DNA of 61,083 nucleotides from Candidatus Omnitrophota bacterium (GTDB lineage Bacteria; Omnitrophota; Gorgyraeia; Gygaellales; Profunditerraquicolaceae): assembly GCA_041650495.1 (NCBI GenBank), contig JBAZLB010000006.1:1-61083 (forward strand). Direction: 5' to 3'. This document shows, one piece after another, positions 15,633 through 15,933 of this stretch; position 1 is the stretch's first letter, and every line of letters begins with the position of its first letter. A program made the translations under genes and the position numbers. The notes below the pieces were generated by a model that was given only the letters and a program-made list of their open reading frames with translations, was not told the DNA's origin and did no database searches.

Positions 15633-15658
15633 AAAAAAATCCCAACCGCAGTCGGGAT
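15633..15658 (-). terminator. Intrinsic terminator downstream of the c-di-GMP-I RNA
   Basis: Minus strand ATCCCGAC-TGCG-GTTGGGAT followed by T6. Confidence 0.8.
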
Positions 15659-15671
15659 CATATAAGAAATG

Positions 15672-15897
15672 GGCCGATAAAGGCTTTGCTGTCTAACCTC
15701 GCGAACAACCTCGCCTCTTCCGGCAACCCAGCCACCATATCACCTCTACATGCCTAGCTATCCTGCGCGTATTCGCTACAGAATATAGCTTTGTAAGGTA
15801 ACTTAGGTCTGTGGCTTTGCGTCCCCGCCTTTCGGCGCACGCCATATTCTAAAGGCGTGTCCGCCAATACCCCGGCGGCGGTTTACCCTTATCGGCC
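15672..15897 (-). ncRNA. c-di-GMP-I (GEMM) riboswitch aptamer, unusually expanded
   Basis: Minus strand AGGGTAAACC...GCC-GAAA-GGC-GGGGACGCAAAGCCACAGACCTAAG...TATGGTGGCTGGGTTGCCG: GAAA tetraloop, 11-nt receptor CCTAAG/TATGG, core G20/A47/C92 equivalents present. Confidence 0.85.
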
Positions 15898-15904
15898 ATA
15901 GAAA

Positions 15905-15933
15905 AGTATACAACAGATTTGCCCGTTTTTCAA
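15905..15933 (-). promoter_or_regulatory. Sigma70 promoter TTGAAA-N17-TATACT for the riboswitch RNA
   Basis: Predicted TSS about 15897, at the 5' end of the closing helix. Confidence 0.65.

Follow-up and report, generated by a model that had tools for sequence, protein, structure and literature searches.

The window analysed here is a stretch of 61,083 nucleotides (nt) from a Candidatus Omnitrophota bacterium (contig JBAZLB010000006.1, positions 1 to 61,083). Its minus strand carries, at 15897-15672, an RNA element that by every available sequence test, including those that define RF01051, is a genuine cyclic di-GMP (c-di-GMP) aptamer of the c-di-GMP-I (GEMM-I) class. To judge from its relatives, it is one member of a previously undescribed Omnitrophota family and not a singleton: at least 31 related RNAs were found in Omnitrophota genomes and metagenomes, nearly all of them upstream of the same operon, in which a GH1 glycoside hydrolase gene is followed by a patatin gene. 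This count is a lower bound, and the family counts given below refer to these 31 members. The aptamer is closed by a long-range helix that should compete with the ligand pocket for nucleotides, and the RNA is probably produced as a small transcript in its own right and not just as a leader to the downstream gene. The regulatory reading favoured here, to which a probability of roughly 0.4 may be attached, is that of an ON-type attenuator, most of whose transcripts would terminate to give a discrete RNA of 230-265 nt. A literature search turned up no paper on a c-di-GMP riboswitch in Omnitrophota.

The aptamer and its family

In the Rfam scan the window matches RF01051 at 15719-15853 on the minus strand with 52.8 bits against a gathering score of 35, which bears out the preliminary description's claim of an intact GEMM core. 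Compact relatives score 77-78 bits, and most of the scanned relatives 54-78 bits. A sub-threshold Rfam scan of 15400-16000 returned only RF01051 and one chance match to a long non-coding RNA. The 271-nt stretch folded here has a minimum free energy of -110.7 kcal/mol (z = -4.9 against dinucleotide shuffles), and both the long helix and the P3 extension described below are present in its minimum-energy fold. Over 16 sequences, the core structure is paired at 97.8%, as against 87.4% in shuffles, and its covariation score is 0.371, as against 0.163, a value reached by none of 500 shuffles.

The core resembles that of Vc2, the RF01051 aptamer of Vibrio cholerae tfoY, in being made of two hairpins, with a GAAA tetraloop on P2 and an 11-nt receptor in P3, in the P1b pairs G21-C46 and U22-G45, in the conservation of G20, A47 and C92, and in the CCG that follows P3. 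G21-C46 (alignment columns 12-87) is GC in 16 of the 16 sequences, and the next pair, N22-G45 (columns 13-86), is UG in 11, CG in 4 and UA in 1. By string search, the tetraloop lies at 15833-15830 and the receptor is composed of CCUAAG (15807-15802) and UAUGG (15739-15735); docking of the one into the other is predicted from these motifs. The equivalent of A47 is the nucleotide at 15818, by its position in GACGC-A-AAGCC, and C92 and C93 are placed by the family register at 15723 and 15722. In Vc2, A47 intercalates between the two guanines of the ligand, one of which pairs with C92. The equivalent of G20, at 15887, is G in the window, as had been pointed out before, and in all 31 members. In the GEMM-Ib riboswitches for 3'3'-cGAMP (the Geobacter class), A replaces G at this position. 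Because G20, A47 and C92 are G15887, A15818 and C15723, the predicted ligand is c-di-GMP and not 3'3'-cGAMP.

The Rfam alignment of the window starts at 15853, where the 3' arm of a side hairpin (P2b, see below) is taken as the start of P2. Of the three conserved A residues of the bulge, only one is kept in this register, which also contains two non-canonical pairs. The relatives place the true 5' end of the aptamer at 15897, where GGCCGAUAAGG|GU|AAACC matches the model's uaaugaaAAaG|GC|AAAcc; the compact relatives align over their full length to RF01051, with GGCCGAUAAAGG|GU|AAACC on the 5' tail of the model. The anatomy given in the preliminary description agrees with this corrected register and not with that of Rfam. 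Rfam mis-registers the 5' part of the P2-expanded members, the same start being seen in L190 and L151, and the aptamers of L139 and L154 are not detected by Rfam at all. The latter two (L139:3809-4020 and L154:4598-4841) contain an insertion of about 85 nt with two hairpins between the P2 3' strand (GGGGGCG) and CAAAGCC, adjoining the position of A47.

P2 of the window differs from that of Vc2 in forming a four-way junction, in which two side hairpins covary, and P3 differs in having a structured extension of 64 nt. The P2 domain (15819-15885, minus strand) consists of P1b (GU/GC), an AAA bulge, a 2-bp base (CC/GG) and three hairpins located by exact string search, namely P2a (CCGCC/GGCGG, 15878-15861), P2b (CACGCC/GGCGTG, 15859-15838) and P2c, a 4-bp stem with the tetraloop (CGCC-GAAA-GGCG, 15837-15826). 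P3 (15725-15817) combines the tetraloop receptor with an irregular extension at 15802-15739, in which TTACCT/AGGTGA, AGCTAT/ATAGCT and GCG-AATA-CGC are paired in the minimum-energy fold. The two extra P2 hairpins and the P3 extension of about 60 nt had been recognised in the preliminary description, and the homologues keeping such helices that it called for were found in the search. Two hairpins are inserted between the 2-bp base and the apical 4 bp with GAAA in nine members, the window included; for these nine, RNAalifold recovers the four-way junction, and 12 of its 22 pairs show compensatory changes. The P3 extension of the window type is shared by 12 members; 17 of its 30 pairs have changed in a compensatory manner, and its internal loops are conserved. 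Both expansions together are found in four (the window, L013, L067 and L151). The enlarged aptamer is therefore not a singular oddity. The term 'giant' is justified only in a relative sense: from helix to helix the window RNA measures 226 nt and is the fourth largest, in a family ranging from 118 to 244 nt (median about 180). The base (2 bp) and P2c (4 bp) add up to 6 bp, the same as in compact members, and therefore the tetraloop-receptor geometry should be kept; neither expansion disturbs the 6-bp length of P2 or the receptor. A window-specific pairing of the linker sequence AAGAGGCG with CGCCUUU of P2b was considered and dropped, as by eye it is not conserved in the other P2-expanded members.

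The family was collected in two ways. GH1 orthologues with 54-64% identity were found in 80 species-level genomes, labelled mostly as Candidatus Omnitrophota and in a minority as uncultured Planctomycetales or plain 'bacterium'. A core-motif search that made no use of the long helix detected the aptamer upstream of GH1 in 16 of these 80 loci, and on the 16 loci scanned with both methods (L001-L016) it agrees with Rfam. A metagenome scan for the 5' signature (a 16-mer) yielded at least 120 stretches; among the 120 listed, about 104 were chance matches, and at least 15 further family members were found. The metagenome instances were found independently of GH1, and 11 of the 14 informative ones sit upstream of it. 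Altogether, 27 of the 31 members are co-oriented with and upstream of GH1, or of a YdjM gene and then GH1. The RNA is absent from about 80% of the related GH1 loci, the remainder of those genomes not having been searched for copies elsewhere.

The closing helix and the ligand pocket

The two strands of the long helix were located on the minus strand by exact string search at 15897-15886 (5' strand, GGCCGAUAAGGG; GGCCGATAAGGG) and 15683-15672 (3' strand, CCUUUAUCGGCC; CCTTTATCGGCC), in keeping with the earlier proposal that the 5' end pairs with 15672-15683. When the region is shuffled, 1% of the shuffles contain a helix of 12 bp or more with no more than one G-U pair. In the 5' strand, by the Rfam and Vc2 register, 15897-15893 is the P1a 5' strand (G15893 = G14), 15892-15888 is the junction J1/2, and G15887 and G15886 are G20 and G21; in the family numbering of the helix, nt 5 is G14 of Vc2, nt 6-10 are junction nucleotides 15-19, nt 11 is G20 and nt 12 is G21. 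In the Vc2 register P1a is thus represented by the outer 5 bp (GGCCG/CGGCC), and in the inner 7 bp J1/2, G20 and G21 are paired with the distal CCUUUAU.

The same closing helix is present in 31 of 31 members, with positions 2-12 paired in 30-31 of them. Position 1 covaries (AU 16, UA 3, GC 2), as does position 10, which is J1/2 nucleotide 19 (AU 22, GU 7, GC 2), and the remaining positions are invariant in sequence. Position 12 (G21) can pair with the C46 equivalent in 16 of 16 sequences and with a distal C or U in 31 of 31, and these two pairings are mutually exclusive. By homology with Vc2, pairing of J1/2 would exclude the ligand pocket as well. Since the inner 7 bp take up J1/2, G20 and G21, the full 12-bp helix is best read as the ligand-free conformer. 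The description of the long helix as an anti-P1 thus comes near to this: its inner 7 bp compete with G21-C46, but its outer 5 bp correspond to P1a, so that it is neither a plain P1 nor purely an anti-P1.

In ligand-bound Vc2, NMR and crystal data establish the pairs G11-C97, A12-U96, C13-G94 and G14-C93, with P1a ending at G14-C93, together with the pairing of the ligand with C92, its contact with G20, and the pairs G21-C46 and C22-G45 (PMC11705072). In the window, unlike in Vc2, a linker parts C93 from the closing strand, and the closing helix continues over J1/2, G20 and G21. Two partners are available to G15893, the equivalent of G14, namely the adjacent C93 (15722) and the distal C of CGGCC. 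Of the two pairings, only the latter reaches at least 5 bp and covaries. The linker, which runs from the core to the 3' strand of the helix (15684-15721, GGAAGAGGCGAGGUUGUUCGCGAGGUUAGACAGCAAAG), is purine-rich, 38 nt long and contains a small hairpin (GCGA/UCGC). Its length in the relatives is 2-80 nt, with 17-80 nt in most. The shortest is that of L190, where only the dinucleotide GA stands between aptamer core and distal strand, and therefore the helix belongs to the closing region of the aptamer. A small open reading frame (ORF) over the linker and distal strand was rejected, being absent in 8 of 31 members and in differing frames among the rest.

Transcription signals and genomic context

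A consensus scan places the promoter of the RNA at 15905-15933 on the minus strand, where TTGAAA (15933-15928), a 17-nt spacer and TATACT (15910-15905) give 10 of 12 matches, as previously described; 7 nt separate TATACT from the first base of the long helix. TTGAAA-like and TATACT-like hexamers occur in 30 of 31 members at a spacing of 16-17 nt (17 in all but one), and in these 30 the promoter ends 5-8 nt ahead of the first base of the helix. Therefore, transcription should start at, or within about 2 nt of, that base (about 15897), the start site already proposed for the window. The -35 hexamer is enclosed by a hairpin (CUUGCCC...GGGCAA, 15918-15940, minus strand; 6 pairs, -8.6 kcal/mol by RNAfold), the terminator-like end of the upstream YdjM-like gene, which overlaps the RNA promoter; 24 of 30 relatives are arranged in this manner. 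The hexamer lies in the loop, and the U-rich 3' flank of the hairpin is the promoter spacer. This overlap of terminator and promoter mirrors that of T2, the second terminator behind the RNA, with the GH1 promoter.

At the other end of the RNA, the long helix is trailed by a U-rich tail (CAUUUCUUAUAU, 15660-15671, minus strand; 6 of 8 T, beginning 2 nt past the helix), and the two together form what looks like a terminator-like site, T1. In the family, the first 9 nt past the helix are 62% T, as against 35% in the next 150 nt (binomial P about 6e-20, with related sequences treated as independent), and at least 5 of 8 T follow the helix in 25 of 31 members, the window included. Four relatives in which the pattern search finds no second terminator (L092, L102, L117 and L122) have 7-8 U directly past the helix.

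The second terminator, T2, lies 13 nt beyond T1 in the window (15633-15659, minus strand) and is the only terminator returned by the terminator scan at the locus. Its stem, GAUCCCGAC-UGCG-GUUGGGAUU, spans 15659-15638 and is followed by UUUUU, with the T-run ending at 15633; this is the intrinsic terminator that had been placed behind the RNA. A homologue, UCCCAAC...GUUGGGA followed by U6-7, is found by pattern 7-36 nt past the helix in 25 of 31 members, with compensatory variants. In L008, L013, L110 and L151 its arms are 45-103 nt apart and enclose inner hairpins, as against the usual loop of 3-20 nt; arms and U-tract are retained. In the window, T2 pairs with a probability of 1.0 in the complete RNA and of 0.94 once the 5' strand of the long helix has been taken away, and across the relatives the two values are 1.0 and 0.94-1.0 (23 of 24 values; L193 excluded). 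No antiterminator for T2 was found, nor, by eye, a conserved GUUGGGA-like competitor. As the pairing of T2 is nearly unchanged without the 5' strand, T2 has no competing structure and should be ligand-independent.

Downstream of T2, an exact string search locates the extended -10 element of GH1, TGTTATAAT, 43 nt before the ATG. The preliminary description had reported this element correctly, but its coordinates are 15544-15536 (minus strand) and not about 15538-15546. The window RNA differs from Vc2, therefore, in starting at base 1 of the helix and in having two terminators and a separate promoter ahead of the downstream gene; both an unconditional terminator (T2, 15659-15633) and a promoter (15544-15536) stand between aptamer and GH1. 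In the window 88 nt separate T2 from TGTTATAAT, and in most relatives the T2 U-tract ends 4-6 nt before TGnTATAAT. Whether or not a locus has the RNA, this TGnTATAAT is a conserved feature upstream of GH1, and in about half of the loci the ATG follows it after 6-10 nt, which fits a leaderless mRNA.

Some loci depart from this plan. In L092 a T2-like hairpin, seen by eye, abuts the ATG, without TATAAT. In a truncated contig (L049:60-120), the distal strand UUUAUCGGCC is followed by 14 nt, TGATATAAT and the GH1 ATG; unlike the other members, it has neither a terminator hairpin nor a U-tract between helix and GH1. A conserved, structured insert of about 100-200 nt is present between the GH1 -10 element and the ATG in L002:3880-4000, L003:3790-4000, L006:3850-4000, L112, L193, L151 and L156. 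Its ends pair as AAGUGAGC...GCUCAUUUA, and a long hairpin, GCACAUAACUUAUGG...CCAUAAGUUAUGUGC, lies within. At the gathering threshold it has no Rfam match in L002, L003 and L006, and it could represent either a further leader element or the insertion of a palindromic element.

The downstream operon of the window (12234-15492, minus strand) consists of the GH1 gene (15492-14269; PF00232, 1.8e-85) and, 10 nt behind it, the gene for the patatin protein (14258-12234; PF01734, 2.2e-31, and PF00027, 3e-19), and the same gene pair occurs in the relatives. In the patatin protein a cyclic-nucleotide-binding domain (residues 36-121) and the patatin domain (388-549) are separated by about 260 residues without a Pfam match, a pairing of domains that recalls the neuropathy-target-esterase-like lipases. 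Upstream of the RNA are the genes for the YdjM-like membrane protein and a protein with a peptidoglycan-binding domain. A motif scan of the window for GGDEF, EAL, HD-GYP and PilZ returned none.

The next gene downstream is not always GH1. The RNA precedes YdjM and then GH1 in L110, and in L102 the gene of a 100-aa protein, preceded by a TGTTATAAT of its own; in L090 a separate terminator stands behind the RNA. The aptamer of L117 scores best (66.5 bits) as the c-di-GMP-I-GGC variant, RF03167, to which it fits, whereas that of the window scores as standard c-di-GMP-I with the canonical ligand-contact nucleotides. The L117 aptamer has the same closing helix (AGCCGAUAAG...CUUAUCGGCU), then U7. 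It lies directly behind a PAS-GAF-GGDEF-HD-GYP gene and faces a convergent gene for a trypsin-like protease (L117 7791-11159, 11228-11380 and 11625-12356, oriented coordinates), and therefore it is either an orphan or drives an antisense transcript.

Elsewhere in the window, a 601-aa ORF at 35965-37770 (minus strand) lacks a Shine-Dalgarno motif, but a TATAAT lies exactly 7 nt ahead of the ATG, and the gene looks leaderless; a Shine-Dalgarno-like motif precedes only 18 of the 36 long ORFs of the window. A tRNA gene lies at 6612-6683 (minus strand; 63.5 bits), and a near-identical tRNA is present in the relative L011.

Readings of the RNA and their meaning

As an ON-type attenuator, the RNA would be transcribed from its own near-consensus promoter, starting at base 1 of the 12-bp helix. 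Without ligand, the distal strand would zip the helix shut and the polymerase would stop at T1. If c-di-GMP bound while the 38-nt linker was being transcribed, J1/2, G20 and G21 would be locked in the pocket, the inner helix would be blocked and T1 would be weakened. Most of the transcripts passing T1 would then be halted by T2, and GH1-patatin would receive at most a trickle of ligand-dependent read-through on top of the output of its own promoter. Because T2 is ligand-independent and GH1 has a promoter of its own, most transcripts would be the discrete 230-265-nt RNA. The direction of the switch, like any effect on GH1, is what we infer here. Control in cis is favoured by the near-constant position upstream of GH1 and by the U-rich tail behind the helix, whose inner part conflicts with G21-C46, as well as by L049, with no terminator between helix and GH1.

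The adenine riboswitch pbuE/ydhL is an ON-type transcriptional switch in which the terminator directly overlaps the aptamer and no separate antiterminator exists. Here, likewise, the ligand-bound aptamer and a terminator stem compete for the same nucleotides. Unlike in pbuE/ydhL, the shared nucleotides belong to the 5' part of the aptamer (P1a 5' strand, J1/2, G20 and G21), which is invaded by a distal 3' strand; moreover, the terminator 'loop' is the whole aptamer of 170 nt, and a second, unconditional terminator follows.

Several observations weigh against the ON-type attenuator. The outer 5 bp, which adjoin the U-tail, are the same in both conformers, so that termination may not differ between them, or may differ in the opposite direction. 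The U-tract of T1 in the window is interrupted and starts 2 nt past the stem. Release of the distal strand gives T2 no other pairing partner, and read-through past T1 should mostly stop there. An antiterminator formed by the linker and CCUUUAU gives a family summed z of about -2.3 against composition-matched shuffles, which is weak; this pairing is strong in a subset (L008, L043, L044, L110 and L167), and in the window it is worse than in shuffles (z = +1.1). The module of T2 and TGnTATAAT stands upstream of GH1 also in about 20 or more relatives without the RNA, where T2 terminates the upstream peptidoglycan-binding gene, and therefore GH1 does not need the RNA promoter. Finally, modules of terminator and promoter bracket the RNA on both sides, as they would a gene.

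A second possibility, somewhat less likely, is a stand-alone c-di-GMP-binding small RNA of 230-265 nt that exerts no control over GH1. It would either buffer or store c-di-GMP reversibly or act in trans under the control of the ligand. Its competing inner helix would lower the very high affinity of the class to a reversible, physiological range. The near-consensus promoter with its start at base 1 of the helix, the unconditional T2 and the terminator-promoter modules on both flanks speak for it, as does GH1, which keeps its intact TGnTATAAT, often at leaderless distance, with or without the RNA. So do the varied downstream neighbours (YdjM in L110, the 100-aa protein with its own TGTTATAAT in L102, the separate terminator in L090) and L117, where a GGC-variant with the same helix lies behind a PAS-GGDEF-HD-GYP gene and faces convergent genes. 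There is also a precedent. The merRNA of Bdellovibrio bacteriovorus is a c-di-GMP-I aptamer on a discrete non-coding transcript, for which a role as a c-di-GMP store has been proposed; it is 445 nt long, has no conserved downstream ORF, shows extreme measured expression and has been reported only in Bdellovibrio (PMC3627812). The Omnitrophota RNA resembles it in being, in silico, a discrete promoter-to-terminator transcript. It differs in that a conserved GH1 operon lies behind it (GH1, or YdjM then GH1, in 27 of 31), in its ligand-competing closing helix and in its occurrence in many lineages.

Against a stand-alone RNA stands its co-oriented position upstream of GH1, in 27 of 31 members and in 11 of the 14 independent informative cases. 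Its absence from about 80% of related GH1 loci would be odd for a general buffer, with the reservation that copies elsewhere in those genomes were not searched for. A U-rich tail behind a ligand-competing helix is a hallmark of attenuators, and nearly all known riboswitch aptamers act in cis. In its widest form, as a phylum-wide family of self-contained, c-di-GMP-gated small RNAs, each with a strong promoter, a self-competing aptamer and terminators and none controlling the downstream gene, this possibility appears somewhat doubtful; such RNAs could be a reservoir, or could act in trans through the exposed purine-rich linker or the CCUUUAU strand.

A conventional OFF switch, in which the long helix is an extended P1 stabilised by c-di-GMP and the ligand raises termination at T1, seems unlikely. 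It draws on Vc2, where ligand binding drives the formation of P1a and the length of P1a is critical for binding (PMC11705072), on the P1a-like character of the pairs beside the U-tail (GCCG/CGGC), and on L190, where the 2-nt spacing is like that of an ordinary P1. However, a plain P1 would end at G14, and the helix covers J1/2, G20 and G21, the last needed by C46, in 31 of 31 members, and nucleotide 19 of J1/2 covaries. At -15 to -20 kcal/mol the helix should, moreover, form without ligand, and T2 renders additional termination at T1 redundant. Very improbable, finally, is riboswitch-controlled promoter occlusion, by which polymerases that pass T1 would run to T2 and transiently block the overlapping GH1 promoter with no read-through needed: the T2 U-tract 4-6 nt before TGnTATAAT in most relatives, with the 3' arm TTGGGA near the -35 position, would allow it, and it would give a purpose to a conditional T1 before an unconditional T2, but the proposal is purely inferential, T2 and TGTTATAAT are 88 nt apart in the window, and the overlap of T2 and promoter is equally present without the riboswitch.

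With regard to RNA structure, the family provides natural examples of the c-di-GMP-I fold tolerating large insertions, namely the P2 four-way junction, the P3 extension and a linker hairpin between C93 and P1, a tolerance useful to structural work and to biosensor design. It also exposes a blind spot of the Rfam model, by which members are mis-registered or missed. A closing helix that covers J1/2, G20 and G21 offers a compact way of coupling or tuning ligand binding; should the RNA be self-contained, the competing helix would make a reversible sensor or buffer out of an aptamer whose picomolar binding is otherwise nearly irreversible.

A predatory lifestyle is reported for at least one Omnitrophota member, Velamenicoccus archaeovorus, and the Bdellovibrio host of merRNA is likewise predatory. 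If the Omnitrophota RNA is a separate species, the idea behind merRNA, of an RNA as store or sensor of a second messenger, would extend to a candidate phylum of ultra-small, possibly predatory bacteria, in whose cells a handful of RNA molecules could suffice to bind most c-di-GMP. If it stands alone, it would be the first conserved stand-alone c-di-GMP riboswitch RNA family beyond the single-genus merRNA. If, on the other hand, it controls GH1-patatin, c-di-GMP would be linked to a glycosidase-phospholipase pair conserved across Omnitrophota.

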